In this document: one piece after another, positions 3,501 through 63,080 of the stretch
Position numbering within the stretch: position 1 is the first letter of the stretch
Layout of the letters: each line of letters begins with the position of its first letter
Origin: a virus
Taxonomy: Duplodnaviria; Caudoviricetes
Strand: one strand, 5' to 3'
IMG/VR virus record: IMGVR_UViG_3300033075_001674
Coordinates: 44,476 to 108,475 of that record
DNA length: 64,000 bases
Position numbers and translations under genes: made by a program
Notes under the pieces: model-generated
Databases searched by the model: none
Told to the model about the DNA's origin: nothing
Seen by the model: only the letters and a program-made list of their open reading frames with translations

Positions 3501-4416
3501 CGTCTCGAACTTCCTGCAGCGCATCTCCCCTGCGCGCACCAAGCCTCTCTTTCTGGTGCGTATGCGCGACCTGACTCCCGACACCGTGGACGTCGAGGAT
3601 GCCCTGGAGATGACCGGGGTCCTGGAGCTCTACGAGAGCCCCTACACCAAGCCCTTCTCCTACCCTCTGGACGACATCCCGAACCTGGGGGAGCGAGAGG
3701 GGTCGGCCGCTATGTTTGATCAGCCTGACCCCTCTCCCCCCTGGGTTCTCACAGATCCCCTCGTAGGGGCGTCCCAGAGCAAGTTCGACACCGACATCGA
3801 CCCTGCTACGGGGGCCCCCGCCACCTCCGACGACTCTACCCCCTGGGGGTGGGACACCGCCGCCCTGTCGCCGGAGAGCTTGGTGAGCGCGAAGCTCAGC
3901 TACGTCCACGCCGGAGGGAATATCCCAGCAGACCTGGAGGCAGAGCTGCGGGTGGATCAGCCGTTGATGGTAGGAGAGACGCTCCTCTACGGGAGGTCCT
4001 GGGTCCCGGCCTTCGGAGAGCTCGGCTACCAGCTCGGGGGACCGGTCACCTCTGTGGCGCCCCTGTCCGTCGACGCGGCTGAGCTGCGGATCGTAGGGTG
4101 GCCCTCTGCGTCCACCTTCGACTACGTGGTGAAGATCTTCGTGAACTCGGTCCTGGTATCCACCCTGGAGGTAACCCACACCGCCGACGGTACCTCTCGC
4201 TGGTACTGGGGTCCTTCCCCGGCGGGGGCTACGCTTCCCGGGGGAGGGTTCAGCGTGTCTCCGGGAGATGAGGTCCGAGTCGGCATCTACGCCACCACGG
4301 AGGAGCGTTCTCGCCAGAGGCTCAGGCTCGTCTCGCTGACCCTTGGGGAGGGCGCCTCCTGGACATCCGGGGGACCGCTCGCGGCGGACACCTACGTAAT
4401 CCACAGAGGTCTGTTA
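511..4416 (+). CDS. Large baseplate/tail structural protein with PKD-like Ig domain (1301 aa if TTA 4414-4416 is stop; track ORF runs to 4470)
   Basis: PPTADPG...LDGSGSKDPEGGPLSYEW and FQLRVSD are PKD/Ig-like signatures; beta-rich; context among tail genes. Confidence 0.65.
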
Positions 4417-4427
4417 GGATGCCAGGC

Positions 4428-5102
4428 ATGCGGCCCAACACCACGGTGCGCCTCGCCAGGAGCAACTTGACGCTCACCGCTTACAACGAGCGGGGTAAGC
4501 GCGTCGGGTGGCGCAAGGGGCACAACATCTTCCTGACCCTGGGGAGGACCTGGCTCCCCGACCTGGTGAGCTACTCCGCCCTCCCTGCGGGTACCCCGCC
4601 CCCTGTGGGGCCCGTTACCCGCACCGACTCCCGTGGGGTCCGGTACATGGGCCTGGGCATCGGAGGCGATCGGCAGAGCAACCTGGCCCTTGCCGATGCC
4701 TCTCCGCTGGTCGATCACTACCCGGGCACGAACGTCCAGACCGACACAGACCCCGGGGTGGTTGCGCTGGAGCGCCCGGTACGGATCACCGCGGCCACCC
4801 CAGGCAGCCCTGCGCTGCCCCCGGGTTACGACGCGGGGGACGTGTGGCTAGGGCAGATCGCTGCGCCACCCACCAAGCCCAACGCGACGACGGTGAGGTT
4901 CTCCCGCCTCTTCACCTCGGGGGAGGTGGCCTTCGGCCCCTTCACGTCGGTCCCCATCTCGGAGATCGGGTTGTTCCTTCACAGCGACAGCGCGACCTAC
5001 ATCTACACCTACAACAACGCGCCGTTCGCCTACGACACGTTCGACACCTTCCACATTCGCTCGGGGTTCGGCGTGCTTGCCGAGTGGGAGCTGAGGTTCT
5101 GA
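4428..5102 (+). CDS. Baseplate/tail-fibre attachment-type protein
   Basis: HNIFLTLGR...YMGLGIG...ISEIGLF pattern resembles phage tail-collar/fibre N-terminal domains; ATG 4428 lies 7 nt after TAGGAT (track start 4419). Confidence 0.55.
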   Translation: MRPNTTVRLARSNLTLTAYNERGKRVGWRKGHNIFLTLGRTWLPDLVSYSALPAGTPPPVGPVTRTDSRGVRYMGLGIGGDRQSNLALADASPLVDHYPGTNVQTDTDPGVVALERPVRITAATPGSPALPPGYDAGDVWLGQIAAPPTKPNATTVRFSRLFTSGEVAFGPFTSVPISEIGLFLHSDSATYIYTYNNAPFAYDTFDTFHIRSGFGVLAEWELRF

Positions 5103-5103
5103 C

Positions 5104-7377
5104 ATGCCGTTCTACCGACACGCAGCGCCTACCTGGTACGGCGCCGGGACCATCAACCCCTCCACCACGACACCTACCGTTCTCGGCAGCGGGGAGTCCT
5201 ACATCTTCTGGAACGTCGCTGCGAGTGGGGCGGGCGGCGCCCCCCAAGGCACCCAGGTGGACAGCGGGGCCTCGCGCTACACCTTCGGGGTCGCTTTCGG
5301 GGAGAACGCGGAAGCGCTGTCGGTCAACAGGGGGTTCAAGGCCCTGTTCCAGAACACCGACTACCTGGACGAGGTGGTGCAGGCGGACCGGGTGCGCGCA
5401 GTCACGATCCCGGTGACGTTTGCGACCGACACGACCGACCTCACTCTGCCCGCAGACATCTACCTCGGGGCTCTCGGGGCCTCGCTCACGGAGGACCACC
5501 TCAAGAACGTTCTCCGCCTGCTCACCGAAGAGGGGGTGGAGCTCGTCGACTTCGCCACGTCCACCTTGATCGCCCCGCAGTCTTGCTCGGAGGCGACCTC
5601 CCCTCTCTACTCCGCTGGAACGGAGGTGATCACCTTCGCCGCCGAGGTCCCCGCAGGGGACTACTTGCTGCTCTGCTACGAGCGGGTCAGCTACGCCCAG
5701 GCGAGCCGGGAGATTCTACGCCCACCGTACCTGAACGCCCTTGCGGGGCTGGATGGCAGAGTTCAGCAGCTCTTCTCGGTCATCCGGGGAGACACCCTGG
5801 ACCTGGATGCTGCAGTACCGGCCTCGCTGAGCGTGCTTCTCCGCCGAGGTGTGAACGGGGTGTACAGGTCCGGGTCCACCGCAGCCAGCGTGCCAGCTGA
5901 GCTCGTGGACTACTACCCTGCGGTAACGGAGACGGATACCGCGGGAGCGGGTGCTTGGTTCCTGCGAGACGGGCCAGCGCTTACCGGCCTCTCCGAGAGC
6001 GACCTCTCCGCGGGGGAGCATCTTCGAGACCCTCTGGGCTCCATGTGGTGGAGCCGGCTGAAAGACACCGACCCGGGCAATGGCACCGGCATCCACCAGT
6101 TTGTGGGTGGAAGCCGAGGGTTCGTGGTGACCTCTGCCACCCCGCTCTCCACAAACGCCGGCAGCATGAACGGAGCCGCTGCCATCGATGCGTTCGCTGC
6201 GTTCGTGGAGTCGAACAACTCCCACAGCAGCGATACGTACACGCCCACCAAGCTCGCCCTGCCGCTACTTTGCGATCTGCAACGAGTCACCGGCGACGAC
6301 TTGGTGACCATCTCGGGCGGCAACTGGTTCACCAAGACCATCTCCCTGGTAGTCCGGTCGGCGCTCTCGGTGGGACAGACCCTGATTGAGATCGAGTGGT
6401 CCAACCCCTCGGACCTCCTGGCCCCCGGTTCGGACCAGCGAAGGGTCTACCGCATCAAGGAGATCGTCAGCGCCACGCAGATCAAGATCATGGCGGTGGA
6501 CGGGAGCGATGTCGGCCTCCCGGCCTCCCTCACCTCCGGGACGATCATTCGCTACTACACCCCTACGTTCCTGGCTACCGCAGGCAGCGGTGCAGTGCAG
6601 GCCCTCAAGGGCAACCTCAGCAACGCAGTGCTGGATGCTGGGGTAGTCCTGATGCTGGTGCCTCCGACGGCGTCCTATGACGCGGGCGATGCGGTGCTAT
6701 TCAAGTCGGCGTATGCAGGGGCCAGCAGCACCGGGTCCGGAGCCCTCGCTTTCGAGTGGGGGGGCTACGAAGCCAGCGGCGGAGCAAGCTCCGCTTTTAC
6801 CTACAAGCGCTTGGGCTCTCTGCGGGGGGATGGGAGCATCGTCCCCACCAGCATCACCTCCGCGAGCGGAACGTTCACCACCCTGGTGGCCCCTACCGCG
6901 TACCTCACGACCGTCTCGGCGACGACCCTTACCGCCACGACGGGTACTGTCTCCACGCTGACGTCGACCACGGCGTCGATCACCAACGCCCTCCCCTTCG
7001 GCCTGCGCATACAGCAGCAGCGGAAGAAGGTGACGGATCTATCCTCGGTGACCGGCACCGTAGCCATAAATCTCACCGCCATCCTCTACGAGAACCAAGT
7101 TGCCAAGGTGGTTTTCTCGGGAACGGCCTCTCTCACCACCATCACGCTGTACCCCTTTGAGGGCACCCCTGGGTACACCTTCGAGGTGTGGTTCGATCAG
7201 CAGACCGCTGCTGCGCAGATCGCCAACAACTCCACGACCTGGCCCAGCTTCCTCAAGTTTCGGTCCGAGGCAGACAAGTTGCTGACCGGTGAGGTCGGCT
7301 GGATCGACATCTTCACTTTCAACGTGCTGGCCGTAAACAAGGTCGAAGTCAGCGTTCGCAGGATCAAGGTGAGCTGA
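5104..7377 (+). CDS. Tail fibre-like structural protein (757 aa)
   Basis: Thr/Ser/Gly-rich, T-rich repeat stretch near C-terminus; tight coupling with neighbours. Confidence 0.55.
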   Translation: MPFYRHAAPTWYGAGTINPSTTTPTVLGSGESYIFWNVAASGAGGAPQGTQVDSGASRYTFGVAFGENAEALSVNRGFKALFQNTDYLDEVVQADRVRAVTIPVTFATDTTDLTLPADIYLGALGASLTEDHLKNVLRLLTEEGVELVDFATSTLIAPQSCSEATSPLYSAGTEVITFAAEVPAGDYLLLCYERVSYAQASREILRPPYLNALAGLDGRVQQLFSVIRGDTLDLDAAVPASLSVLLRRGVNGVYRSGSTAASVPAELVDYYPAVTETDTAGAGAWFLRDGPALTGLSESDLSAGEHLRDPLGSMWWSRLKDTDPGNGTGIHQFVGGSRGFVVTSATPLSTNAGSMNGAAAIDAFAAFVESNNSHSSDTYTPTKLALPLLCDLQRVTGDDLVTISGGNWFTKTISLVVRSALSVGQTLIEIEWSNPSDLLAPGSDQRRVYRIKEIVSATQIKIMAVDGSDVGLPASLTSGTIIRYYTPTFLATAGSGAVQALKGNLSNAVLDAGVVLMLVPPTASYDAGDAVLFKSAYAGASSTGSGALAFEWGGYEASGGASSAFTYKRLGSLRGDGSIVPTSITSASGTFTTLVAPTAYLTTVSATTLTATTGTVSTLTSTTASITNALPFGLRIQQQRKKVTDLSSVTGTVAINLTAILYENQVAKVVFSGTASLTTITLYPFEGTPGYTFEVWFDQQTAAAQIANNSTTWPSFLKFRSEADKLLTGEVGWIDIFTFNVLAVNKVEVSVRRIKVS

Positions 7378-7979
7378 TGGAGTTCAGGAACCCACGTGAC
7401 ACCCGGGCCGTATTCGAGCATACCGGCATAACCCCCACGGCACCTGGCTCCCTCCTATCGAGGGGGGAGCCGGGTCGACCCCACTCCTGGGTAGGGAACC
7501 ACGTCACCCTCCAGTGGAAGGTCACGATACCCGCGATGGCACCCGGAGCAGATGCCGACTTTTCCGGCGCATACCCTGACAAGGCGTTCGTCCACGGGTC
7601 GGACCCCTGGCTGGAGCTGTTCGATTACGGAGGCTACCCGCTCCTCATCACGGGGGCCTACGTCATGTCCGCGGCCAACCTCGGGTTGGCCTCACCGGGA
7701 ACGTTCGCGGACATTGGGCTCGGACTGCAGGCATTCAGCTCTGATCTCGCCGATAAAACGACGCACTGGTACGAGTTCGGCGGAGCTCAGCTCGACCCCA
7801 CGGCGGGAAGCCAGTACACGGCAGCGCGCCTATCCACGAACCTGCAGGGCACCTTGCCCTTGCAGTACACGTTCCCCAAGCTGGGGTTCCGTGCCACCAA
7901 CCTAGACGGATCCCCTTCCCTATCTGGGCAGGTCCTCATCGTGGTAGAAGCCCTTGAGTGTGGGCAGCCTTACCCATGA
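7377..7979 (+). CDS. Hypothetical protein (200 aa)
   Basis: TGATG coupling upstream, ATGA coupling downstream. Confidence 0.65.
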   Translation: MEFRNPRDTRAVFEHTGITPTAPGSLLSRGEPGRPHSWVGNHVTLQWKVTIPAMAPGADADFSGAYPDKAFVHGSDPWLELFDYGGYPLLITGAYVMSAANLGLASPGTFADIGLGLQAFSSDLADKTTHWYEFGGAQLDPTAGSQYTAARLSTNLQGTLPLQYTFPKLGFRATNLDGSPSLSGQVLIVVEALECGQPYP

Positions 7980-8290
7980 TCGCCGACATCCTCCCCCTCA
8001 TCCTCAGCGGGGTGGCCGTGCTACTGGGGCTCCTCTCTGGGGTCGCCTACCTGTCCAGGAAGGGCGGAACCCCGGGACCTGCTCCCGCTCCCCCGGTGCC
8101 GTTGCCGGACGTGAAGGTCGTCGAGAAGGAGATCCGCATCGAGGAGAAGGCCCGCGAAGAACGCGGGGCCCTTGAAGAGAAGCTGCGGGAGAGGGAGGCC
8201 CAGGACAAGGCGAAGGTGGAGGAGAAAGCGAAGGAGGCTGGTACTCTGGAGGAGATCGTCGAGTTGCTGAAGGAGGCTGGGAAGCGATGA
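7976..8290 (+). CDS. N-terminally anchored membrane protein with Pro linker and coiled coil (i-spanin-like architecture)
   Basis: MIADILPLILSGVAVLLGLLSGVAYL hydrophobic helix, PGPAPAPP, then E/K-rich helix; ATGA overlaps both ends. Confidence 0.5.
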   Translation: MIADILPLILSGVAVLLGLLSGVAYLSRKGGTPGPAPAPPVPLPDVKVVEKEIRIEEKAREERGALEEKLREREAQDKAKVEEKAKEAGTLEEIVELLKEAGKR

Positions 8291-12099: not shown

Positions 12100-12276
12100 T
12101 AAGCGGCGCTCGAACGGCTCGCTACCGTGGGTGGGACAGCGGGTGACCGGCCCATCCTGGATGACCCGGCTGTTGCACCTCGGGCAGCGAACCTCGGACG
12201 CGATCTTCCCCGTGTGCGGGGTGTCGGTCTCGACGGCGTACTTGCTCATGCCTTCGTTGTCGTTGTGGTTGTGCAT
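12100..12276 (-). CDS. Small zinc-ribbon protein (58 aa if TTA is stop)
   Basis: CPRC...CPTHGSEPFERR then in-frame TTA; TATTCT-N6-ATG upstream; track ORF would overlap the nuclease gene by 95 bp. Confidence 0.6.
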
Positions 12277-20167: not shown

Positions 20168-21557
20168 ACGGTTGTTCTCCTCCGGCCTCTTCAGGCCAGT
20201 GCTTGAGTAGACGTTGTACGTCGACGCACTTCCGCTCCAGCAGCGGGTGTGCGTCGCGCAGGATGAATACCCGGGGCCGCTTCCCGGGCAGGAAGCGGCA
20301 GGGCCTGCCGAGGATCTGCTGGAGCGTGTCGGGATCGCTCACGGGCTCCAGCAGCAACACGGTGTCGAGCTCCTCATCGTCGTACCCTTCGCGCCCGTAG
20401 GAGCGATAGGCAAACGTGAGGCGGGAGCGCCGCCTCTGCAACTCCCGGGGCACCTCCGCGGACAAGATGCCGATCTCGGGGGAGGCGTCCAGGGCCCGTC
20501 GAAACATCCAGGGACGGTTGTCGACGGTGACCTCGGCCTCGATCCCGGAGTAGGCCAGCGCGAGATGTGCGAGAGAGGTCAGGCTGGCGGAGAGCACGAG
20601 GATCTTTTTGTTCGGCTGCGAAAGCACCCATCGAAGCAGGCGCACGCACCCCGCCTTCCTCTCCGGGAGAGACCCTACCCTGCCGGCCAGCTCGGCCCAG
20701 GTTTTCTCCGCGTTGTCTCCTGGTTGTGGGCGTTCCCAGATGACGGTCTGCCCGGTCTTCAGGAAGGTTACCCGGGGTCGTAGGGGGGCCTGCAGGTTCC
20801 GGTGCAGGATGGGGCCCAGGTGGTACTTGCGCAGGATGTCCAGTCCATCCCTGCGCTCGGGTGTGGCCGTCAGCGCGATTCGCTTCCCGGAGAAAGCCTC
20901 GGCGCAGGCCGTGTAGGTTGCGGCGTGTACGTGGTGTGCCTCGTCGAACACCACCTGCCCGAAGCGCCCCTCACAGGGGGTGACTCGACCCGCACGGGCC
21001 GCCGATGCCAGGGCAGTGTACGTAGACAGCACGAAGGGCGCAGTCTCCAGGAGGCCGCTCTTCGAGGTCAGCAGCGGGATCTTGCCCGAGAGCCCCAGGA
21101 ATCGTACAGCGGACTCCCACCACTGATGCAGCAGGTCCAGGTTGTCGGCGACCACGATGGCGGGGCGCTGCGAAGCGGCGATGGCGTGCAGAGCCACCAC
21201 CGTTTTCCCGGCCCCGCAGTAGAGTTGCAGAACACCGCCGAGGTTGGCGGCAGCCAGCGCTTGCGCTGCGGGGACCTGGACCGGCTTCTCGGGGTTGCGC
21301 AAGTCGAGCTGGATGTTGCAGCTGAACCGGGCGACCTCACCTGTGAAACGGCGATCGTCGGTGATCTCCAGGTTCAGCTGCTTCGGGAGGAAGAGCATCG
21401 CCCTCGGAACCAGTAGATACCCGTCTGCTTCGTGGAAGAGGGGACCCCCCGCCCCTCCATCTTGCAGCGACGACTTCAGGACGCGAAGCGCTGCAGGATC
21501 GATGGAGGAGAGGGGGAGCCACAGATGGCGGCGGAGGTAAGCGGTCATCCTCGTCAT
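20130..21557 (-). CDS. Superfamily 2 helicase (UvsW/XPB-like)
   Basis: CGAGKT, DEAHH, LTATPER, QILGR..R. Confidence 0.88.
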   Translation of the reverse strand: MTRMTAYLRRHLWLPLSSIDPAALRVLKSSLQDGGAGGPLFHEADGYLLVPRAMLFLPKQLNLEITDDRRFTGEVARFSCNIQLDLRNPEKPVQVPAAQALAAANLGGVLQLYCGAGKTVVALHAIAASQRPAIVVADNLDLLHQWWESAVRFLGLSGKIPLLTSKSGLLETAPFVLSTYTALASAARAGRVTPCEGRFGQVVFDEAHHVHAATYTACAEAFSGKRIALTATPERRDGLDILRKYHLGPILHRNLQAPLRPRVTFLKTGQTVIWERPQPGDNAEKTWAELAGRVGSLPERKAGCVRLLRWVLSQPNKKILVLSASLTSLAHLALAYSGIEAEVTVDNRPWMFRRALDASPEIGILSAEVPRELQRRRSRLTFAYRSYGREGYDDEELDTVLLLEPVSDPDTLQQILGRPCRFLPGKRPRVFILRDAHPLLERKCVDVQRLLKHWPEEAGGEQPFDNRPLNAVPQV

Positions 21558-22095
21558 CGTCGTTCAACCACGGGACGTTCGCCACGAAGGAGGCGCCCTG
21601 CAGCATCGCGCCCACGATGCCTGCTCGAGCGACCTCGGCGGCGAAGCGCCTGGTTTTCGAGTGCCGGCGATGCTCCTGCGCCGGCAAGCGTGAGGCCACC
21701 TGCGGCGCAACTGCGTCGTAGGTCACCGGCGACATAGCCCCGGTGGGCACGACCCCTGCTGCGGCTGCGCCCATCGCTGCGGCCTTGTTCGCCTTGACGG
21801 GGGCAGCGGTCCGGTCAGGGGGAGGGGAGGAATCCCCCGGGAGGCTGTACGGGCTCCCGCTCTGCTGTGTCGGCGCGGGGTTGTTGGTCTTCCGGACGAT
21901 GTAGGCCGCTGGCAGGGTCTTGCTGAAGTTGGACGCCTTGACCCCCAGGCAGGCCGCGCGCATGTCGCAGGGGTTGGTCCGGGTCCCCGACGCGGTGATG
22001 CCGCCTCCGACGCACATCGTCTTCGCGGCAGAGTATGTGCCGAAGCAGGGGTACTTCTGCTCCACGTCGGTGCTGTTGGTGTAGAGCTGGGCCAT
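21538..22095 (-). CDS. Hypothetical protein with Cys-rich N-terminus (185 aa if TTA is stop)
   Basis: RBS AAAGGA; ends NDDDEDDR then TTA; track ORF would overlap the helicase by 221 bp. Confidence 0.6.
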
Positions 22096-22133: not shown

Positions 22134-22718
22134 ATGAAGCTCCTCGACGGAACCGTGATCGACGTGCAGGACGACTCTCGCGGAGAGGTGTTGCGGGGCG
22201 TCTTTCCAGAGCAGGCCCTTATTCCCGATTCGATCAAAGTTGCGATGCCCCTGAAGCGCCTTTCGGACATGGAAGACGCTCACTTCGCGCTCGTTTTCGA
22301 CAACGAAGGGCAGCATCACCGCAAGTTCGCCTGCATCGACGAGGGCCACACGGTCCTGAGCGCCATCTACTTCATGAAGACGGCGCACCGTCTTCCACGC
22401 GAGGCCCAGAAGATGGCCGCGCAAGGGATCGTGGAGTCCTGCGAGCGGTATGACCTGCCCTACCCCGCCGTCATGGTGAAGATCGCGAACGACGAGGCTT
22501 ACCTGGCGGGGGACGTCCGGGGGGTAGCGGTCCTGCCCACGGAGAAGGCCGCCGGGCTCCTGGGCACCCTGGCCAGCGTGGGGCAGAAGGGGCTGGACTG
22601 GGCGGTCAGCAACCCCGGCAAGGCGCTCGGAACCGCGATGACGGGGCTGTCGGTGGTCAACACCGGCTCCGAGATCAAGAACAACCTCAAGAACCTCTCT
22701 TCCACGGTGGGCGGCTTA
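22134..22718 (+). CDS. Head-associated hypothetical protein (194 aa if TTA is stop)
   Basis: TACTCT-N6-ATG; HFAL..RKFA..YF domain; TTA ends 1 nt before next ATG. Confidence 0.6.
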
Positions 22719-28671: not shown

Positions 28672-29823
28672 TCACCCCTTGATCCGGACCACCGTGCCGG
28701 GTCCCGGTGGGTCGGCATCGGTGAACAGCCCCCACACGATGGGGAAGGGGGTGTACTCCACCTTGTCCCCGTACCCGTCGGTCAGGTAGAGGAGCAACCC
28801 GATCTCCTCGCCCCGAGCGATCAGCTGCTGGATGGGCCAGCTGAAGCAGGTACCCCCGCGCCCCCTCCACGAGAACCCTGCGTTCCGTAGAGCTTCGGGG
28901 GTGACCTCCTCGCTGCTGACCAGAGCGACATCTGCCTGATGGAGGGAGCAGATGTCGAGACCCACGTCATCCATCGCAGCCGCAGCTTCCCTGCAGCACG
29001 CCTTCAGAAGGTTGCTGTGCATCGACCCGGAGGTGTCGACGAGGATGGTGAAGACCGACCGCTCCGCGATCCCTGCGGGCAGAATCACCTCGTCGTCGAT
29101 GAAGCTGCGGCGATGCGGCCTGCTGTAGGTGAACCCGTCGTGCCCGCGCAACCTGCTCAGCTCCCCCCGGAGGGAGTGCTTCAACAGCTCCTGCCAGGAG
29201 AGGGTGGATGTCTCTCCGCACAGGTCAGCCAGGTGCTCCATGTGTCCGCCGTAGAGCCCGCGGTCTCTCGTGGGGATCGCCTTAGCAACCCTCCCGAGCG
29301 CGGACTTCACGACAGAGCGCCCCTTCCCCTCCTTCGAGTAGCGGGACTCAAGCTCCGGGGCAGCGGTGCACTCCCCGCCCCCGCACCCACTGCAGGGGGC
29401 GGCACTACCCCCTTGCTGGAGCAGGAGCTTGTAGTATTCCAGCGTCCCCAGGTGCGGAGGGAGCCCCAGGGTCTCCGGGAGGATCACCCCCTCCACCAAC
29501 GCCTTGCCCAGCGAGCGCCCCACCGAGTTGATGTACGCGTCTGCAGCGAGGTTGAGGATGTGGTGGTTGACCCCCTCCCCCAGCACCGCCCTGGCGGCAA
29601 AAGTGGTGCTGACGTGCATCACCTCGTGCCAGAGCAAGAACGACCTCTCCGGCAGGGGGCGCTGAGAGAAGAACGTGGGGTTGATGAAGAGGAGCATGCT
29701 CTCGCTCACAGCGAGCGTCGCCACCTCTTCCGTGAAGATGGGCACGAGCTCGTAGACGATGTGCGAGAAGTAAGGCTCGGCATTCAGCAGATGGCGCCGA
29801 GCATCGGCCAACCCCGTGGTCAC
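28672..29823 (-). CDS. DUF2201-type metallopeptidase-VWA protein
   Basis: HEVMH (HExxH); VDTSGSM, GRGGT, LTDG (MIDAS); GTGA coupling. Confidence 0.85.
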   Translation of the reverse strand: MTTGLADARRHLLNAEPYFSHIVYELVPIFTEEVATLAVSESMLLFINPTFFSQRPLPERSFLLWHEVMHVSTTFAARAVLGEGVNHHILNLAADAYINSVGRSLGKALVEGVILPETLGLPPHLGTLEYYKLLLQQGGSAAPCSGCGGGECTAAPELESRYSKEGKGRSVVKSALGRVAKAIPTRDRGLYGGHMEHLADLCGETSTLSWQELLKHSLRGELSRLRGHDGFTYSRPHRRSFIDDEVILPAGIAERSVFTILVDTSGSMHSNLLKACCREAAAAMDDVGLDICSLHQADVALVSSEEVTPEALRNAGFSWRGRGGTCFSWPIQQLIARGEEIGLLLYLTDGYGDKVEYTPFPIVWGLFTDADPPGPGTVVRIKG

Positions 29824-31037: not shown

Positions 31038-31640
31038 CTACTGCTGCCTGTGACAGGAGCAGTGGCACGTGGGGTTGTTGTTGCGCCAGCACTTGCTGTG
31101 GCAGCACAGCGAGCACTCCCCGTTCTCATCGATGCGCATGTCCGGAAGGGAGGGGGTGTCGGGATCGTTTGTGAGCTGAGTCTCCATCTCTGCGATGCAG
31201 CAGAGGCACGCGACTCCATGCAGCTCCTCGCCGGGGACCTCGGACAACATCACCTCCCCGTTGGGGGCCATGTCCCCTGAGACGGAGGCGATGCGGTAGC
31301 AGGCCTCTCCCAGCAGAACCTCTGCTCCGCAGAACTCGCACAGGCCGATGGAGGAGTCAGCGAGCTCTTTACGCTCTGACAAGTTCCAGACACGCGCGTC
31401 CTCCACCCGCACAGGGTTCACGTCGACGGCCTGCTCGACGAGCACGTCGTACACGTCCTCCATGTGGGTATCGCACAGCAGGAGCTGCGGAACGTGGTAC
31501 TCCCCTAGCAGCTCAAGCCCGTCGGGGACGATGAGGGGCGGGGTGTCGGGGAGGAGACGCACCCGCTGAACCAGGTGCATCGTGTGGCGCAGCGTCCCGC
31601 ACAGGGAGCAGCTAAGCGAGCCGTTTCTCGAATGGTCCAT
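31038..31640 (-). CDS. Cys-rich hypothetical protein
   Basis: Multiple CxxC; RBS AAAGGA. Confidence 0.6.
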   Translation of the reverse strand: MDHSRNGSLSCSLCGTLRHTMHLVQRVRLLPDTPPLIVPDGLELLGEYHVPQLLLCDTHMEDVYDVLVEQAVDVNPVRVEDARVWNLSERKELADSSIGLCEFCGAEVLLGEACYRIASVSGDMAPNGEVMLSEVPGEELHGVACLCCIAEMETQLTNDPDTPSLPDMRIDENGECSLCCHSKCWRNNNPTCHCSCHRQQ

Positions 31641-32197
31641 CTACGAGAGATCCTTTCTCGGCTGGGGTCTGGGCCCCGGCCGTTTGCGTCGCAGTCAGCG
31701 ACGAGAACGAACGTCTGCATGTACGGGGTGCTGCCGCTCTCGATGACCGTGCGGGTGAGGGTGGTGCCTGCGGGGATGGGTGTGGCGGCCTGGGCCCTGG
31801 TTTCGTAGCGGAGGACGCACTCCCGGAGGTGGAGATCGTCCTCACTCTCAGCGGTCTCGAAGTACGGGCCCAGCCACCTGTCCGCTGAAGGTGGATAGAA
31901 CCTCTCCGTGGGGCACCAGGGGATGGGCTCGCCTGGCTGGGCGAGGTTGAGGATCACCTCGACATCCCGCTGACAGAAGAAGGTGACCGCCCCAGAAGAG
32001 GTGATGCACCGAAACCTCAAGCCCAGGGACATCGCGGTGGGGTCGCGAGCGAAGGCGTTGGTGATGGTGTAGCGGGAGTCTTCCCCGCGCAGAGGGTTGC
32101 GGATCGACAGGCCGAGGAAGTCCAGAGGCAACTCGATGAGGTTGCTCTTCGGGATCCGATGGTACTCGGCCCTCTCTGGGTCAATCAGCGACGCCAC
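31613..32197 (-). CDS. Hypothetical protein (194 aa, GTG start, TTA end)
   Basis: RBS AAAGGA before GTG; in-frame TTA on both sides. Confidence 0.55.
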
Positions 32198-32200: not shown

Positions 32201-32350
32201 TAATCCTTTCTCCGAGGAGGGCTCGGGCGGCGAGGAGGGCGAGGAGGAAGATGGCGTTGAGGAAGAGTCGCAAGGTTCGGGGTCTCCCAGGAGGAGCTGA
32301 AGGAGGAGGACGAACCACCCCCCGCTGCTTTCGTTGTGGTCGGTAGGCAT
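32201..32350 (-). CDS. Small Ser/Pro-rich peptide (49 aa if TTA is stop)
   Basis: Downstream of GGCATAAG motif; short hydrophobic segment. Confidence 0.35.
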
Positions 32351-45407: not shown

Positions 45408-46645
45408 TCACAGACACGCCTTGCCGGAGGTACCTCCTGCACCTGATGCTGGGGGGTAAGACCGTCCAGCAGGTTGAGGATCACGCCCTGGAGATGGGGC
45501 TCGACTACGGCAGCATCCAGCTGCTGGTCCTCATCCGGGAGAGGGGGGCGCCCCCGGAGGTGTTCCGGCCCCGAGACCTCAACCACCGACCGAGCCAGGA
45601 GTTCCTGGAGTCCGTGGGGCTGCTCGGCAACTTCCCTCGCCTCAGCCGCGAGGGGGGCGCGGCGTTCCAGCTCCACCAGAACCCGAGGGCCAGAGAGATC
45701 CTGGAGCTCGGGTTGCTGGGCAGGATGCCGATCCACGAGATCCTCAGCTTGCTCGCGGAGAGCAAGGTCCGCACCCGCGTGGAGGTGCTCGAAGCCTACG
45801 CCCACCTCTTCTGGGATGTGGCCGGCATGGACTCCACGGAGCTCAGGGCCCTGCTGCACCTGAGAACGCCCGATGTCGCCCGGCTCCAGAAGCTCTCGGC
45901 CCTGCAGGATAGCCGGGAGGCCGAGGCAGGCATGCCCGTGGCGGTCACCCCCCAGCGTGGAGGGGGTGGGGGTGGAAGGCCCGACGCCAACTCGCTGCCC
46001 CTGCCCTACGAGACCCTCACCCCCGAGCGGCCCACCCCGTCGGAGCTGCGGCAGAGCAGGCAGTGGCGCGCCCACGGAAAGCGGGACTTCGTACGCCAGC
46101 TGGCCAGGAGTATGCCCCTGCACGAGCGGGCACGGCAGGCCGACGCCCTGAAGCGTGCACACTACAGCGACCCCAGGCTCACCATCTCCAGCCTGCCGGC
46201 GAGCCCTCTGACGGTCGCACTTACACGGTCCTACCTGGGGATGCAGATGGACCGCCTGGACTTGAAGAAGGCCTACGAGGTGCTCCACCACCTGGTCTTC
46301 CACCGCACTGTGGAGCAGGCGGTGAGCAACCACCCCGAAGCCCCACTGCGCCTGGGATCTCTGCTCAGCAGCGCAGCCACGCTGGTCCGCATCCAGAAAG
46401 AGCTCGGAGCAGGCACCGCCTCCCTGCAGAACCAGATCCAGGTCATGGCGCTGCAGACCAACCTGGAGGGGCACTACGGCAGCCCCAACGAGCTCACCGG
46501 CGGTCACCACAACCTCGACCCCTACTCCGACGCCGACAGCGCCAACCTCAAGGAGATCACCGGCAAGGGCGCGGGACGCACGGCCAACCAGGTCACCACG
46601 GTGGATGCCGATGAGGAAGAGGAGGACGAGGAGACCGTGGGGTTA
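45404..46645 (+). CDS. Hypothetical helical protein upstream of terminase (413 aa if TTA is stop); possible small-terminase role
   Basis: Acidic tail DADEEEEDEETVG then TTA; track ORF would overlap next gene by 121 bp. Confidence 0.5.
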
Positions 46646-47609: not shown

Positions 47610-50600
47610 ATGATTACCGGGAAGTTTGACCAGCGCTGGTACAGCGGCAAGGAGCAGGAGCAGCGGGTCTCCTCCCAGATCGAACGCTACGATCCCGACG
47701 AGGAGGACCAGCTCGAAGAAAGCTGGAAGCACGACTCCTTCTGGGAGCAAGAGGGCGAATCCCTGGGAAATCTGCCCAGTATACCCTCCTTCAAGATGAG
47801 CGATTTCATCACAAGGATCCTGCGCATCCCGAATAAGAAGGGCGCGTACGCTCCTTTTTCCTTTGAGGGTCGGGCTCATTTGCCAGCCATCTACGATACC
47901 CCGGCTCGCTTCATCCTTCTCTGTTGCGCCAGGCAGGTGGAGAAGTGCGTTAGCTTGCGCACGCCCATTCTCACAACGAATGGGTTGCTCCGCGCCTCGG
48001 AGATTTCCGAGGGGGATGTGGTCCTAAGCTACGACACCCGTACCTCAAAGCTCGTATGGAAGCCGGTGCTATGGAAGAGCCCTACGGTACGCAAGCCCGC
48101 TCTTCGGATAACCCTCCAAGGAGGAGCGCAGGTGGTTTGTGGGGAGGATCATCCGTTCAGGGGGTACCGTCAGTGGATACTCGCCAAGGACCTGGTGAAG
48201 GGCAGTCGGGTAGAAGTGGCGAACGAAACCCCGGAGATCCCGGGGTCTATGGAAGTACCTGTCGAAGACGTGGTTCGAGCCGGAGTGTTCGACGCGCTTC
48301 GGCTAATGGGGGTGGCTGCGCACGCTGAACCCCGGCCCTTCCTGTCGTGTACTGTCCGGCACCGTCATCAGATAGTCCCGCTTCTCGAAGACGTCCTCTA
48401 CCAGGTGGCCGAACCGTTCGAGGGAAAGTACCGGGTCCCGAAGGGCAGGTGGACTGTCTGGCTGCGGGGTAAACTCGGGGCCGTCCTCGCTGAGCGGAAA
48501 GGCAAGGGCTTTTCCAGCAACCTGAGCTGCAAGGCAGGGGTCCGCTCCGCCCGGGTGGCCGTGAAGGCGATGTGGTTGATCGCGGGCGTGCTCTCGGAGC
48601 GGGCCAACCGATCTGGTTCCCTGGAGATGCACATCGACGTCGGGAACGAGGAGGAGGCCGAGGAGGTGCGGGCGATCCACCTCATGGCCGGGATCGAGCT
48701 CAGCACAGTGAAGCACCAGCACGGCCCCGGGGGAGCGGGAGGGGTGTGGTGGCGGATGCGCCCCATCGGACGGGGGAAGCGGAAGCTGCTCTCCCTCCTG
48801 CCCAGGGAGCTGGTGAGCGACTTCCCGGAAGCCGACCCCTACTGGGAGGACGACACCCTCCCCCCGCAGTGGGCTTCGAGCATGCAGCGGGTCTACTCGG
48901 AGCGGGTCCCGGAACGGCGAGACCTGGAACACGGCTGGTACGGTAAGAAAAGACCCGGCCAGAGAGGGCGGCAGGGACGCAAGGGGTCGCGCTCCCCCTC
49001 GCTCTCCCTCTCCAGGGTCCGAGGGGAGGAGGCGATCGAGACCCTCCTGCAGGTGGAGGGCGCACACCCCGAGGAGCTGTACCTGCTCAAGCGGGAGCTG
49101 GAGGCCCCGACTCGGTGGAGCCGGGTCATGTCGGTGGAGCCCCTTGGAGAGATGGAGATGGTGGACTTCGAGGTGGAGGGGACGCACACCTTCGTCGCCA
49201 ACGGGGCCATCACCCACAACAGCACGTACCTCGGCAACCGACTGCTCGTCAGCTCGGTCGCTTACCCGGGCTACAAGAGCCTCTACGTCAGCCCGAGCTC
49301 CATCCAGACCAAGACTTTTAGCTCCGACCGTCTGCGCAACCCCATCGAGACCTCGCCCTTCCTGCAGGACTTCGCCAGGGCCGGAGGCGTGCAGAACGTG
49401 CTGGAGATGGAGTTCGGCAACTCCAGCAAGATCACGATGCGGTCTGCGTACCTAAGCGCAGACCGGTGCCGCGGTATCCCGGCGTACCTGCTCTGCATGG
49501 ACGAGTTCCAGGACCTGCTGCCAGAGCACATCCCGGTCATCGAGCCCTGTACCTCCCACGCCCCTCGGGATTACCGCGTCCACCTCTACGCCGGCACCCC
49601 GAAGAGCTTCGACAACAACATGGAGTTCTACAGGTCGGGGTTCTCCGCCGACCGGCCGATGTCGACGATGGGCGAGTGGATGGTGCCCTGCGACCACTGC
49701 GGGGTGAAGGGGCCTGGCGGTTGGAGGTTCTGGCAGAGCCTCGGGGTGAAGAACATCCAGAAGAAAGGTCTGTCCTGCTCTCAGTGCGGGGGAAGCCTGG
49801 ACCCCCAGCACGCAGACGCTCGCTGGGTACATCAACAGGCAGACGGGCGGTTCGAGAGCTACCGCATCCCGCAGCTGATGGTGCCCTGGCGCCCCTGGGA
49901 CGAGCTCTACACCGACTACATCAACTTCGATAACGCCAAGTTCCACAACGAGGTGCTCGGGCTGTCGATGGACAACCACCAGCGCCCGCTCAGCATGTCG
50001 GAGATGCGCGACTGCTGCGACCCCCGGCTGCCGATGGCGCTCAAGGACGCCTTCCTGCCCGAGAAGTGGGGTGACCACATCTTCATGGGCGTCGACTGGG
50101 GCAGCGGCACGCTGAGCTACACCGTCATGACGCTCGCTACCTACGTCGGCGGCATCTTCACGATCTTCTACATGCAGCGCTTCACGGGAAGGCTGCTGGA
50201 CGTGCAGGAGCAGATCGACCACGTGCTCCACACGCTGCGCAGGTTCAAGGTCGTCGTCTGCGGCACCGACTTCGGTTACGGGGCCCAGAACAACGACCAC
50301 CTCATCCGCTGGTACGGCCGTGACAGGATCGCGGTCTATCAGCACCTCGGACGCGTCACCAAGAAGATCGCCTTCGACCCCAGGATGCAGCGCTTCAAGG
50401 TGTTCCGCTCGGCCGTGATGGCCGACTTCATCAACATGATCAAGCGCAAGAACATCCGCTTTCCTCGCTGGGAGGACATGCGGGAGCCCTTCGCCAAGGA
50501 CTTCTGCAACATCACCTCGGAGCTGAGCGAGACGCAGCAGATGATGATCTACAGCCACCGCCCGGACCGCCCGGATGACAGCTTCCACTCCGCCCTCTAC

Positions 50601-50714
50601 TGCCTCATGGCAAGCACGCTGGTTGTGCAGCGCCCCGACATCTTCTCGCCGCTGCACAACAGCTACCGGCAGGGCCCGGTGCGAGAACTGGGGGGGCCCG
50701 TAGATCAGGGCTAA
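47610..50714 (+). CDS. terL: Terminase large subunit with intein in Walker A
   Basis: RQVEK|ST after splicing; Walker B CMDEFQD; GTPK; nuclease GVDWG and PDDSFHS. Confidence 0.9.
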   Translation: MITGKFDQRWYSGKEQEQRVSSQIERYDPDEEDQLEESWKHDSFWEQEGESLGNLPSIPSFKMSDFITRILRIPNKKGAYAPFSFEGRAHLPAIYDTPARFILLCCARQVEKCVSLRTPILTTNGLLRASEISEGDVVLSYDTRTSKLVWKPVLWKSPTVRKPALRITLQGGAQVVCGEDHPFRGYRQWILAKDLVKGSRVEVANETPEIPGSMEVPVEDVVRAGVFDALRLMGVAAHAEPRPFLSCTVRHRHQIVPLLEDVLYQVAEPFEGKYRVPKGRWTVWLRGKLGAVLAERKGKGFSSNLSCKAGVRSARVAVKAMWLIAGVLSERANRSGSLEMHIDVGNEEEAEEVRAIHLMAGIELSTVKHQHGPGGAGGVWWRMRPIGRGKRKLLSLLPRELVSDFPEADPYWEDDTLPPQWASSMQRVYSERVPERRDLEHGWYGKKRPGQRGRQGRKGSRSPSLSLSRVRGEEAIETLLQVEGAHPEELYLLKRELEAPTRWSRVMSVEPLGEMEMVDFEVEGTHTFVANGAITHNSTYLGNRLLVSSVAYPGYKSLYVSPSSIQTKTFSSDRLRNPIETSPFLQDFARAGGVQNVLEMEFGNSSKITMRSAYLSADRCRGIPAYLLCMDEFQDLLPEHIPVIEPCTSHAPRDYRVHLYAGTPKSFDNNMEFYRSGFSADRPMSTMGEWMVPCDHCGVKGPGGWRFWQSLGVKNIQKKGLSCSQCGGSLDPQHADARWVHQQADGRFESYRIPQLMVPWRPWDELYTDYINFDNAKFHNEVLGLSMDNHQRPLSMSEMRDCCDPRLPMALKDAFLPEKWGDHIFMGVDWGSGTLSYTVMTLATYVGGIFTIFYMQRFTGRLLDVQEQIDHVLHTLRRFKVVVCGTDFGYGAQNNDHLIRWYGRDRIAVYQHLGRVTKKIAFDPRMQRFKVFRSAVMADFINMIKRKNIRFPRWEDMREPFAKDFCNITSELSETQQMMIYSHRPDRPDDSFHSALYCLMASTLVVQRPDIFSPLHNSYRQGPVRELGGPVDQG
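47946..49220 (+). mobile_element. Intein (425 aa) with apparently degenerate endonuclease
   Basis: K|CV...GEDHPF...MVDFEV...THN|S. Confidence 0.9.
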
Positions 50715-51493: not shown

Positions 51494-52161
51494 CAAGTAA
51501 GGCAGCTGGAACCCCTACAACCCGCCCCCAACCACTCCAGCGAGGGGGCGTGAAGAGGAGGTCAGCGGTGCCCAACCCCCTCGGACTGCCCCCGCACTCC
51601 CTCTTTCTGCGAGACCTCAACTACTCGCTGAAAGGAGGGTACAACCGCGCCTTCCGGTACAAGGACATCCCTTCCTGGGCGGCCACCTTCCCGGACCTGC
51701 AGCAAGCCTGGGTGGCCTGTCCTGACGGCCTGTGGATGTACTGGTACATCTGCAAGATCGCCTCTTCGGAGCGCCCAGGCACCCCCCTCCACCGCAAGGC
51801 TGTGCGAGCCGCCACCCTCTGCTTGCAGCTCTCCCATCGGCAGCAGGAGCTGGTGGGGGACCACGCCTCCACGCTGGAGAAGGTGCTGGTCTGGACCAGG
51901 ATGCCGAGCAAGGCCCACCTTCTCAGGGAGGCTACCGACAAGACGCCGATGTGGATGAGCACCATCTGGAGCATCCTCCACATGGCGCAGGTGCCGAAGT
52001 GGTGCCGCCCCCGAGGAGAGGGGGTCTACCTCTCCGCCAGCGCCAACCACCCGGGGGGCAACCTCCTGTTCGACAACAAGCTGCGGGAGGTGATCCGCAA
52101 GGAGTTCCCCACCATCCCCCTCCCGCCCAACCGCGATGTCCTCGGGAGACCGAGGCCGTTA
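51490..52161 (+). CDS. Hypothetical protein (223 aa if TTA is stop)
   Basis: GTGA coupling, RBS AAAGGA; W..CPDG.WM.W motif. Confidence 0.6.
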
Positions 52162-57932: not shown

Positions 57933-58462
57933 CGCCCGAGCAGCTCAGCGAGATCCTGGAGAAGCAAGCCATCCTCTGGGACAGCGGCTCGAACATGCAC
58001 CTTCTCGCTTACCCGGTCACGTGGGAAGGGAAGCGCGCCAGGATCCCCCGGAAGAAGAAGAAAGCGCTGCTTCGTCGCTCTCTGGAGCTCGTTGACCTGG
58101 GATCTTCCTTCGACGACACCCTCCGGAGGGAGGCACAGAACCCCGATATCGACTTCAGGGTGCTGGCCAAGCTGCTGACCCGGGGGTTCGGCTGGGAGAA
58201 CCCTGCGGTGCACCTTCTGCTGCTTGCTTACCCTCCTCCCTTGGTGTTTGACCTCCTCGACAGCTACCCCGACGAGTTCAGCGAGGTTCGCGGGGAGATG
58301 GAGCTCCTGAGCGGGCTGGTTTGCCACTGCAGGAAACGACACAAACTCGATTGGTGGAACCGCTTCCACCTGGACCCCGGACCCGCCACCTTCGGGCTGC
58401 TGTGGCCCCACGAGGAGCTGGCCCGCTGGCTGATAGCTGAAGTAGGACTGATCCCAAGATGA
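57929..58462 (+). CDS. GW.NP paralog family member
   Basis: NPDID...GFGWENPAVHLLLLAYPP; close to 53573-54115 (R.PRK.KK, WP.EEL). Confidence 0.65.
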   Translation: MTPEQLSEILEKQAILWDSGSNMHLLAYPVTWEGKRARIPRKKKKALLRRSLELVDLGSSFDDTLRREAQNPDIDFRVLAKLLTRGFGWENPAVHLLLLAYPPPLVFDLLDSYPDEFSEVRGEMELLSGLVCHCRKRHKLDWWNRFHLDPGPATFGLLWPHEELARWLIAEVGLIPR

Positions 58463-58932
58463 CCGCCGATCCAAGCCTCTTCCCTGTCGCACTCCTGATC
58501 ACCGGCTCCCGCTCCCTGGCAAGCAAGGCGGAGTCCCGGGCCTGGGCGCAGCTACTCCTCAAGGAGGTCCTCCTTTCCCTGCCCAACAACAGCCTCCTCA
58601 TCCACGGTGGGGCGGTGGGGCCCGACAAGTGGGCCGGGGAGATCTTCCAGACCCGCGCGAACGGAAGCATGCGGGTCTACTACGCCGACGGTCGATCCGA
58701 GTACCGTCGAACCCTGGACGCCCCGCCCCTTGAAGAACGGTGGAGCGACCGAGACGTGGGCCCGCTGGCCCGCAACACCCACATGGTCGTCCGCGTGCTC
58801 CCTGCGCTGACCGGATTCCGCCGGCAGGTTCTGGGGCTCGTGGACATGCACTCCCCCACCCGGGGGACCGACCACACGCTGAATCTCGCTCGCAAGCAGG
58901 GGTTCAGCGTTCGACGCTTCGTTTACCCGTTA
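58459..58932 (+). CDS. SLOG-family (DUF2493/YspA-like) protein (157 aa if TTA is stop)
   Basis: ITGSR; IHGGA.G.D..A; GPLARN..M; RGT. Confidence 0.75.
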
Positions 58933-61020: not shown

Positions 61021-61044
61021 GAAGCCGGGGGGCTTCTTTTTAGC
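61021..61044 (+). terminator. Intrinsic terminator
   Basis: gaagcc/ggcttc stem then TTTTTAGC. Confidence 0.7.
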
Positions 61045-61094
61045 TGAAAGCTGACATAAGCACCTGGAGCCCCTTCGCTCCAGAAAGAGAACCT

Positions 61095-61925: not shown

Positions 61926-61926
61926 G

Positions 61927-62472
61927 GTGCCCGGACCGATACATCTTCCCCTGTTGTCGTTCGATGACGTGCCCACGTTCCCTAGGGCGCATTGGGAGGT
62001 GGATGTTGGTTGGAGGGACCTCCCTCACTTCTTGGATCGCCATGTGAACGACCCGACCACCCCGCTGGATCTAGACCCTGACTTCCAGAGAGGGCACGTC
62101 TGGACCCTGGAGCAGAAGACGGCCTACATCGAGTACGTTCTGCAGGCGGGGGAGCAAGGGAAGGTCCTGGTCTCCAACTGCCCCGGGTGGGACAGCGTTC
62201 CGAAGGGTCCTCACCAGCTGGTGGACGGCAAGCAGCGCTTGGAGGCAGCGCTGGGGTTCCTTCGAGACGAGGTGCCCGCGTTTGGCAGGCTGCGCAGCCA
62301 GTACACCGGCGCGATGCGCTACTACATCGGCTTCAAGTGGAGGATCCTCGCCTTGAACACTCGGGCGGAGGTCTTGCGCTTCTACCTGGCGTTCAACGCA
62401 GGCGGTACCCCTCACGCTGCCAGCGAGATCGAGCGGGTGCGCGGGCTCCTTCGGGAGGAGGAAGCGCGGTAG
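61927..62472 (+). CDS. DUF262 (ParB-like/GmrS) domain protein
   Basis: PDFQRGHVW; VDGKQRL; FN..GTP; RBS GGAGGT. Confidence 0.82.
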   Translation: MPGPIHLPLLSFDDVPTFPRAHWEVDVGWRDLPHFLDRHVNDPTTPLDLDPDFQRGHVWTLEQKTAYIEYVLQAGEQGKVLVSNCPGWDSVPKGPHQLVDGKQRLEAALGFLRDEVPAFGRLRSQYTGAMRYYIGFKWRILALNTRAEVLRFYLAFNAGGTPHAASEIERVRGLLREEEAR

Positions 62473-62479
62473 CCCGCCA

Positions 62480-62504
62480 GCCCCCCTGGGGGGCGTCTTT
62501 TAGC
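62480..62504 (+). terminator. Intrinsic terminator
   Basis: gccccc/gggggc stem then TCTTTTAGC. Confidence 0.6.
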
Positions 62505-62720
62505 TAAAAAAGCTGCCCGTACAGGCACAGCCGCGCGTCGCGTCGGTAAGGGCATTTCACTAAGGAGGGTCGCAGATCCACGAGAGTCCAGGAGCGTAGT
62601 GGGCCGGAGCGCGGGGAGGCAGGGGGGCAGATAGATCTTGTCTCTGTGTCAGAGATCCTGGGAGTCTTGCTGGTGCAGCAAGTAGAAACCGCCCCCAACC
62701 GATCACGATGGAGAAGAAGC

Positions 62721-63080
62721 ATGTCGCAGGAAAGTCCACGAAACGTCGCCGCAAGGATCGCGGTGCTCGCGCATGAAGCTGGCGGGATGGGAGAGGAGGA
62801 GAATCTGCTCCGGGCGCTCCTCGCCAAGGCGCAGATGACCCTCAAGGAGACGGACTGCGAGATGTACCCCAGGTACTTCGCGGGGTGGCTGTTCTCCCTT
62901 GTTCTTGTCGACCGCTTCACCGGGCAGGAGAAGGAGACGATCCTGATCGACAGCGACGCCCACAATCTCCTGCCCCCGGAAGGGGACGTTGTGGAGGTCG
63001 GGCCCCCATTGCGCCCGCACCGCGTCACCCGGGGCATCACTGTCCCTTGGGGTGCCCCGTGGGCCGCTCAGACCAGCTTA
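62721..63080 (+). CDS. Hypothetical protein; 3' end uncertain (in-frame TTA at 63078)
   Basis: RBS GGAG; coding-like sequence continues past the TTA. Confidence 0.45.

Follow-up and report, generated by a model that had tools for sequence, protein, structure and literature searches.

TTA codons lie at gene ends in a G+C-rich phage lineage in which UUA probably acts as a fourth stop signal

We analysed a 64,000-nt stretch of phage DNA, hereafter "the window", that corresponds to bases 44,476–108,475 of the 108,475-bp IMG/VR virus record IMGVR_UViG_3300033075_001674. In this DNA, the codon TTA is found in frame at the ends of genes. Our analysis of the phage and of the relatives REL, L006, L009 and L012–L016 suggests that UUA is most probably not read as leucine in any of them, and that it ends the translation of about one-fifth of the genes, as a fourth stop codon beside UGA, UAA and UAG. 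That TTA ends translation is strongly supported by coding statistics and by the positions of homologous stop codons, with exchanges in both directions. A first-pass annotation of the window had proposed that translation ends at TTA, with the codon being either reassigned as a stop or undecodable. Our data support this proposal, and all of the checks suggested there that could be run gave a favourable outcome. The observation itself is confirmed, with one site corrected (32203) and one site ambiguous (63078). Coordinates are window positions unless marked "genome", in which case they refer to the whole record, which has a G+C content of 65% and an estimated completeness of 59% (CheckV).

Position of TTA within and between genes

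A codon log-odds model, trained on 37 long open reading frames (ORFs), was applied to the entire record to score all TTA trinucleotides on either strand. About 20 TTA codons are in frame behind a strong coding signal or in credible genes, and none of these is clearly internal. The coding score drops right after the codon in 16 of 19 cases, as compared to 8.2% of 26,082 sense codons (binomial P = 3e-15). All 64 codons were measured in this way; TTA is the top outlier among the 61 sense codons, and the runner-up codon is followed by a collapse of coding signal in 28% of cases. The tails that follow the 16 collapsing TTA codons have total scores of −0.3 to −121 bits, the sole non-negative tail being 9 codons long. 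Coding resumes in the same frame after three of the 19 TTA codons, at genome 14035 and at window 52159 and 58930. For the two sites in the window, it resumes a few codons on, behind GGAG and an ATG. A same-frame gene likewise follows TGA in 7 of 58 cases, TAA in 3 of 7, and TAG in 2 of 5. Hence, TTA resembles the canonical stops in the rate of same-frame downstream genes.

Within called genes, TTA occurs 41 and 46 times in the two other frames and never in frame. There is no in-frame TTA inside the genes for RNA polymerase, terminase, helicases and the 1300-aa proteins, or inside any other long gene. This bears out the earlier remark that TTA is missing from the RNA polymerase and terminase genes, and applies equally to the other long genes. 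Roughly 10–14 internal TTA codons would be expected, and none is observed. The ratio of TTA to TTG (8/136) is near that of CTA to CTG (76/1086), so the raw number of TTA codons is not unusual for the composition of the genome; it is their position that cannot be due to chance. TTA trinucleotides are enriched at gene junctions in all frames (17 after stops; 6, 3 and 8 in frames 0, 1 and 2, respectively). However, junction motifs cannot explain why the upstream frame lacks a canonical stop precisely where it has an in-frame TTA. The first-pass annotation had argued that the base after TTA varies and that these sites are therefore not out-of-frame TAG codons. This holds across the record, since six of 20 sites read TTAG and the other 14 read TTAC or TTAT. 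The genome-wide tabulation that had been suggested as a check thus favours TTA as a protein end.

Gene calling with four stop codons, another of the suggested checks, yields tidy genes. In the whole record, 104 genes cover 95% of the sequence and end at TGA (69 genes), TTA (20), TAA (8) and TAG (6). The spacers that follow TTA have a median of 19 nt (range −26 to +223 nt) and include overlaps in which TTA and the next start codon form TTATG, in parallel to TGATG and TAATG. Reading TTA as leucine instead creates ~3.5 kb of overlap or fusion with neighbouring genes, all of which disappears with four stops. The next canonical stop in the same frame is a median of 34.5 codons past TTA and 30 codons past TGA. 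These equal distances give no sign of selection for back-up stops.

TTA sites and the ends of homologous genes

Relatives were drawn from Logan, ENA, NCBI and JGI assemblies by means of a protein database and contig look-ups, and a second metagenome scan, with the 1300-aa protein family as query, added 80 distant loci. No match was found by blastn against a phage collection, and no relatives were found by IMG/VR scans with single proteins and alignments or by a first metagenome scan. A Pfam scan of ten TTA-terminated proteins gave no match for nine of them, and for the tenth (genome 27772–28992, outside the window) only coiled-coil noise below the Pfam cut-offs. As these proteins are orphans, family-defined C-termini could be obtained only through the homologues that we found. 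None of REL, L006, L009 and L012–L016 has an internal in-frame TTA (L009 as judged by the window-trained score). Wherever an in-frame TTA follows a strong coding signal in these relatives, it is terminal, and TTATG overlaps occur in L013, L014 and L015. The family-A DNA polymerase of L015 ends with IGRSWYDAK followed by TTA; we take IGRSWYDAK to be the usual C-terminus of such polymerases.

The nine TTA codons named in the first-pass annotation all have the correct coordinates and strands. All nine had been placed at protein ends, and this stands for eight of them: 4414 (+), 12102 (−), 21540 (−), 22716 (+), 31615 (−), 46643 (+), 52159 (+) and 58930 (+). The ninth, 32203 (−), is not a protein end. 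The tail overlaps that had been listed are also correct (52, 95, 221, 104 and 121 nt), with that at 31615 being 76–136 nt depending on which downstream start is chosen. The same is true of the sequence contexts: ATG 22720 lies one base past a TTA, and the upstream proteins include those that end in NDDDEDDR, EEEEDEETVG and PFERR.

At four TTA sites, those at 22716, 12102, 4414 and genome 26473, homologues have a canonical stop, TGA or TAG, in exactly the same alignment column, as would be expected if the first-pass proposal were correct. The TTA at 22716..22718 (+) ends a 194-aa gene (22134–22718) one base before ATG 22720. The window reads GGC TTA G ATG here, and L009, L010 and L011 read GGC TGA G ATG in a column-exact alignment; the L009 gene also encodes 194 aa. 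The downstream 734-aa protein is matched by its homologues from the first residue onwards. Hence, the stretch overlapped by the tail past 22716 codes in the downstream frame. The TTA at 12100..12102 (−) ends a 58-aa zinc-ribbon-like gene (12100–12276); the tail past it, of 37 codons, has a score of −20 bits and extends 95 nt into the next gene. In this case, PFERR followed by TTA aligns with GFERD followed by TGA in L014, and with PFERA followed by TGA TGA in L015. Outside the window, the gene at genome 25828–26475 ends at TTA (26473), and the L016 and L017 genes end with TAG at the equivalent residue.

The TTA at 4414..4416 (+) ends a 1301-aa gene (511–4416); the ATG of the next gene is at 4419, and the tail has a score of −19.6 bits. 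More than 150 proteins make up the family of the 1301-aa protein, and >40 homologues end with R-x-L and a stop at the TTA column. In an alignment of 52 C-termini, most end with TY..R.L at the column just before the window TTA. At the DNA level, this position reads CTC TGA TGA in L015, CTG/TTG TTA GGA TAG in L012 and L014, CTG TTA GGA TAC plus 16 codons in L013, and CTG TTA GGA TGC plus 15 codons in the window. The tails past TTA therefore differ in length: 1 codon in L012 and L014, 18 in L013 and 17 in the window. The TTA at this column recurs in assemblies of four separate sequencing runs, and the sequence past it varies freely. Since TTA is kept across independent assemblies, assembly error was excluded as its source.

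The heptamer TTAGGAT is kept in four phages at this junction (window 4414–4421, L012 13919–13935, L013 4695–4711 and L014 5964–5982). It contains TAGGAT, a −10-like box, which lies 5–7 nt upstream of the ATG of the next gene in L012, L013 and L014. TAGGAT, which overlaps the TTA stop, may be the promoter of a transcript with a short leader or none.

The exchange is also seen in reverse. The window gene at 28672–29823 (−) has an ordinary TGA stop at 28672..28674, and its L009 homologue has TTA at the same column (VVRIKG then TGA in the window vs VVRIKP then TTA in L009). If translated with the standard bacterial code (table 11), the L009 frame continues for 633 codons antisense through the neighbouring gene. 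Together, the aligned homologues indicate that the exchange between TTA and canonical stops runs both ways.

Two further sites are near matches. The TTA at 31613..31615 (−) ends a 194-aa gene (31613–32197) with a tail of −22.6 bits, and its L009 counterpart, of the same length, has a TAG stop that aligns about two residues before this TTA. The TTA at 46643..46645 (+) ends a 413-aa gene (45404–46645) after EEEEDEETVG, with a tail of −27.9 bits. In REL, the gene ends with TGA (as TGATG) just past its own acidic tail, and L006 retains TTA. A 5-nt indel shifts the conserved downstream DNA (GGGTAGNTGTGT) into a different frame between two phages, which indicates that this conserved stretch is not coding in the frame of the tail.

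At two sites, TTA separates genes that share a frame. The TTA at 52159..52161 (+) ends a 197-aa gene (51568–52161), and is followed by GGAG and by ATG 52171 of a 112-aa gene. When the fused 313-aa ORF was used as the query of an exhaustive HMMER search, 13 homologues were returned; they are 136–216 aa long and match residues 7–184 only, and none of the 13 is fused to the downstream part. The TTA at 58930..58932 (+) ends a 157-aa gene (58459–58932), and is followed by GGAG and by ATG 58945 of a 184-aa HAD/PNK-phosphatase gene. The Pfam PNK3P domain begins at residue 8 of the protein that starts at ATG 58945. The REL homologue of the upstream part lacks the phosphatase and ends at TTA, with a 75-codon tail of −36 bits.

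For the TTA at 21538..21540 (−), which ends a 185-aa gene (21538–22095) after NDDDEDDR, no homologue covering the C-terminus was obtained, and the evidence consists of the tail score (−55.7 bits over 66 codons) and a 221-nt overlap. The tenth in-frame TTA, at 63078..63080 (+), is the probable but ambiguous end of a 105-aa gene (62763–63080), for which a search found no homologues. The upstream sequence scores +47.5 bits and the next 45 codons score a weak +18 bits before the signal collapses, so that the 84-codon tail totals −16.4 bits. The TTA at 32201..32203 (−) is 5ʹ untranslated or intergenic, two codons upstream of the GTG start at 32197. It lies in the intergenic region between this gene and the divergent RNA polymerase gene, and the preceding 60 codons lack a coding signal. 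The L009 homologue begins with MASLIDP at the aligned GTG/ATG.

Past the TTA codons, tails are interrupted by frame-breaking indels, and conservation follows the frame of the downstream gene. Conserved tails, and TTA codons aligned with a conserved internal leucine in several genes, had been listed in the first-pass annotation as evidence that would contradict it; we found neither, nor anything else on that list.

More distant relatives differ from the close clade, in which TTA codons are almost exclusively terminal. In L017 (58% G+C), the homologous 1400-aa gene has five internal TTA codons, one of which aligns with a leucine shared with the window protein, and L018 has one internal TTA. Our method thus finds internal TTA codons where they are present. 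Among the 80 further distant relatives, internal TTA codons occur in several loci of 60–63% G+C, including L154, L086, L087 and L096. In-frame TTA codons with coding signal on both sides were seen in L154, L086, L087, L096 and L101 (59–64% G+C). This survey was a rough one, with self-trained models and short loci. The internal TTA codons of these distant relatives indicate that the pattern cannot be explained solely by G+C content. The distant relatives, judged by their sequences, use TTA as an ordinary leucine codon, and the change to TTA as a gene end appears to be confined to a sub-lineage.

Genome content and candidate mechanisms of termination

The RNA polymerase gene (window 32427–41480) encodes a single 3017-aa β-βʹ polypeptide and is split by a LAGLIDADG intein. 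The gene for the gpA-type large terminase (47610–50714) also has an intein. In REL, both proteins are longer than in the window, at 3363 aa for the RNA polymerase and 1447 aa for the terminase. The window also encodes helicases and many proteins without a Pfam match. Public table-11 gene calls are wrong near several TTA stops. The 734-aa protein of the window (22720–24924) is recorded as a 694-aa protein with a later start, 40 residues having been lost because of the false overlap with the TTA-ended upstream ORF. Two genes in relatives, the homologue of the 58459–58932 gene at about 27000–27316 in REL and a gene at 6866–8012 (−) in L009, have no gene call whatsoever, since the frames continue into neighbouring genes.

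The 108-kb record has one tRNA gene, which has the anticodon CUA and is thus of the suppressor type for TAG. It is part of a cassette ~6.5 kb upstream of the window (genome 37312–37959; L004:7312–7959) that also encodes a 99-aa protein and a Pth2-like peptidyl-tRNA hydrolase. The Pth2-like gene scores 21.8 bits with Pfam PTH2, against a cut-off of 23 bits, and has an in-frame TAG where L012 has alanine. The position of the tRNA gene just downstream of the Pth2-like gene is kept in L012 and L015. This cassette may bear on the mechanism of UUA termination. We considered whether the phage is stop-recoded, with TAG read as an amino acid. Despite the presence of tRNA(CUA), all five in-frame TAG codons with strong upstream coding signal are gene ends, and the only internal in-frame TAG that we saw is that in the small Pth2-like gene beside the tRNA. 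Also outside the window, a TAG (genome 31405–31407; L003:13405–13407) is the stop codon of a 787-aa gene with a C-terminal InPase domain, and a 207-aa gene in the same frame begins nine codons past it. Given the TAG-reading tRNA of the phage, read-through of this TAG to produce a fusion protein is conceivable.

How would translation end at UUA? The infected cell's translation machinery would be responsible for termination. The likeliest agent would be a class-I release factor that reads the second base of the codon less strictly, as in organelles in which UUA is a stop, accompanied by a missing or inactive tRNA-Leu(UAA). The host could supply such a factor, as could the part of the phage genome (41%) that is unassembled. 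A look-up of tRNA-Leu(UAA) and release factors had been proposed in the first-pass annotation, and we found neither in the phage DNA: no tRNA with the anticodon UAA is encoded in the 108-kb record. We are evenly divided on the specific proposal that the bacterial-type system of the infected cell reads UUA as a genuine fourth stop by means of a host- or phage-encoded release factor of altered specificity.

The main rival is that UUA is an unassigned, "hungry" codon that no tRNA reads and no release factor recognises. Ribosomes would stall at UUA, and the chain would be freed by rescue or drop-off, possibly with help from the Pth2-like hydrolase, giving the same protein ends. No release factor was found in the 108 kb of phage DNA, and the conserved cassette of the 99-aa protein, the Pth2-like hydrolase and a tRNA would suit such a process. 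There are also precedents for codons that cannot be decoded. In Micrococcus luteus, unassigned codons (AGA/AUA) are reported to halt translation. In vegetative cells of Streptomyces, UUA is effectively undecodable (PMC10732093). However, stalling followed by rescue is slow, and tmRNA tags the released protein for degradation, which is an unlikely fate for the products of 20% of genes, including the 1301-aa protein. Moreover, the TTATG overlaps, and the fact that no extra back-up stops are present, suggest that termination and re-initiation are efficient and ordinary, and the Pth2 match is below the Pfam cut-off. We therefore consider a hungry codon to be rather unlikely. Less probable still is a leaky or conditional stop, at which a tRNA (tRNA-Leu(UAA) of the host, or a phage tRNA in sister phages) allows read-through at some stage to make extended or fused regulatory products. 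Three TTA codons do separate same-frame genes, and the phage carries a suppressor-type tRNA for TAG together with a Pth2-like gene that has an in-frame TAG where L012 has alanine, from which we take programmed read-through to be in use here. Nonetheless, the tails are for the most part out-of-frame junk, with overlaps of up to 469 nt into the next gene, such that read-through would yield products of no use; the share of same-frame neighbours is no higher for TTA than for TGA; and the 108 kb of phage DNA encodes no tRNA with a UAA anticodon.

The standard code is strongly disfavoured already, and we attach very little weight to it. TTA would then be a very rare leucine codon, tolerated in dispensable C-terminal tails, and AT-rich junction motifs such as ribosome-binding sites and −10-like boxes would create in-frame TTA codons by chance. 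The enrichment of TTA at junctions in all frames (6/3/8), the TAGGAT box within TTAGGAT, and a TTA that lies opposite GTA, as in a leucine/valine exchange, are in keeping with this explanation. It would require about 15 genes to have junk tails of 10–155 codons over their neighbours, each beginning exactly at TTA, and it would require none of the roughly 10–14 expected internal TTA codons to occur. It is also at odds with the canonical stops of homologues at exact TTA columns, with the frame-shifting indel that breaks a tail, and with the statistics of the coding collapse (P = 3e-15). A bldA-type role for TTA as a rare regulatory leucine codon was rejected since there is no internal TTA. Recoding at TTA is just as hard to credit. 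It could take the form of a +1 shift onto TAG within TTAG, editing of TTA to TAA or TGA in the RNA, or a bypass; we know of no phage mRNA editing system. At the six of 20 sites that read TTAG, a +1 slip would meet TAG at once, and a UUA-triggered bypass has been proposed for the terminase of the Streptomyces phage phiHau3 (PMC10732093). However, the 14 sites that read TTAC or TTAT, some of which have no nearby stop in the other frames, led us to reject the slip; at 21540, the +1 frame is open for >50 codons. A phiHau3-type bypass does not fit either, because homologues end at TTA and do not continue past a gap, the N-terminal part at 52159 has only stand-alone homologues, and the terminase gene here has no TTA.

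Several observations weigh against UUA as a stop codon in this lineage, or against the altered release factor. The 108 kb, which represents 59% of the phage genome, yielded neither an RF-1 nor a PCRF domain. At the 4414 column, TTA is followed by GGA TAG in L012 and L014, such that only two residues are at stake, and the conservation of TTAGGAT could partly reflect the −10-like TAGGAT box. The TTA at 63078 looks terminal but is ambiguous. In REL and L006, a TTA aligns with a GTA (valine) that is four codons before the stop in the window, and this fits a leucine codon equally well. Lastly, two bacterial genomes examined as possible hosts count against the proposal. The metagenome-assembled genome (MAG) G001 has tRNA-Leu(UAA) and an RF2 with the canonical SPF motif, and contains hardly any TTA, although it is tied to the phage solely through a binned, distantly related contig. 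A second, G063, uses TTA at conserved leucine positions, such as that in the YPG[L] motif of a PLP enzyme.

The search for a host was guided by the 1300-aa protein, homologues of which are found on contigs binned into Myxococcales, Deltaproteobacteria and Acidimicrobiia MAGs, with one in Pendulispora rubella. Their placement hints at a host among the Myxococcota. In the other 400 of 401 Myxococcota genomes searched, there was no further match. We also surveyed RF2 scores across the 401 genomes and inspected the RF2 loop in the ten lowest scorers and in four MAGs with related contigs. The low scorers were mostly truncated genes. The one full-length variant is the RF2 of the Myxococcota MAG G063 (L055:1501–2529), in which SKF replaces the universal SPF codon-reading motif, the loop is two residues shorter, and RRETSF replaces RRHTSF. 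Neither of the two myxobacterial MAGs tested, G001 and G063, uses a UUA-stop code, and no host with such a code was found in this search.

Relation to known systems and consequences

To our knowledge, all natural genetic-code changes described to date in bacteria and phages are of the stop-to-sense or sense-to-sense kind, and the turning of a sense codon into a stop is known from mitochondria and plastids only. Ivanova et al. in 2014 and Borges et al. in 2022 are said to have described stop-recoded phages in which TAG or TGA is read as an amino acid with the help of suppressor tRNAs. The phage described here resembles these in its lineage-specific departure from the standard code and in its suppressor-type tRNA (CUA). 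In contrast, the direction of change in those phages is from stop to sense, whereas here it would be from sense to stop, and TAG is not used inside large genes. A different parallel is M. luteus, with AGA and AUA, which shares with the phage a high G+C content, the near disappearance of UUA and a limiting or absent tRNA. However, in these bacteria, UUA, if present, is still an internal leucine codon or is simply unused, and is not recruited to close genes. The same likeness and the same difference apply to Streptomyces, with bldA and UUA (PMC10732093).

A parallel among phages is phiHau3, together with two prophages: as in the present case, a high-GC phage uses a near-undecodable UUA as a translational signal and not for leucine (PMC10732093). 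In phiHau3, UUA heads 7–10-nt coding gaps inside the essential terminase gene, and translation has been proposed to resume past them (PMC10732093). In the window, UUA is instead at the ends of genes, homologues terminate there, and the terminase gene lacks TTA. UUA is a known stop codon in labyrinthulean/Thraustochytrium mitochondria (NCBI table 23), in dinoflagellate plastids derived from pedinophytes (UUA/UCA) and in Marsupiomonadales mitochondria (UUA/UUG) (PMC12574857). In these organelles, the change has been tied to substitutions in RF2- or RF1-type factors (Ser204 in the RF2-type factor; an altered mtRF1a) and to loss of the cognate tRNA (PMC12574857). As in the phage, the codon is absent from the inside of genes, lies at the stop positions of homologues, closes a large share of genes and has no cognate tRNA gene in the respective genome (for the phage, in the 108 kb). 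However, the organelles have dedicated, altered release factors of their own, whereas the phage depends on bacterial-type host machinery, and no altered factor was found in its 108 kb. Full-text literature searches returned UUA as a stop in organelles only and UUA-associated bypass in Streptomyces phages, with no report of termination at UUA in bacteria or phages.

What would termination at UUA mean for this phage group? Were UUA read as a genuine stop by a release factor of altered specificity, the genetic code would have changed from sense to stop for the first time outside organelles. If UUA ends translation in these phages, this would widen the range of codes that are possible on bacterial ribosomes, and would imply an undiscovered factor or the loss of a tRNA, either in a free-living host or in the phage that infects it. 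Gene callers of the standard type would mis-annotate such phages, with truncated starts, fused ORFs and uncalled genes, and for an entire group of large phages from soil and water, the proteins in public databases would be partly wrong. The genes of such a phage would be shielded from, or tied to, a particular host code. Hence, these phages would provide a natural model for codon-based isolation between viruses and hosts, with relevance to synthetic recoding.

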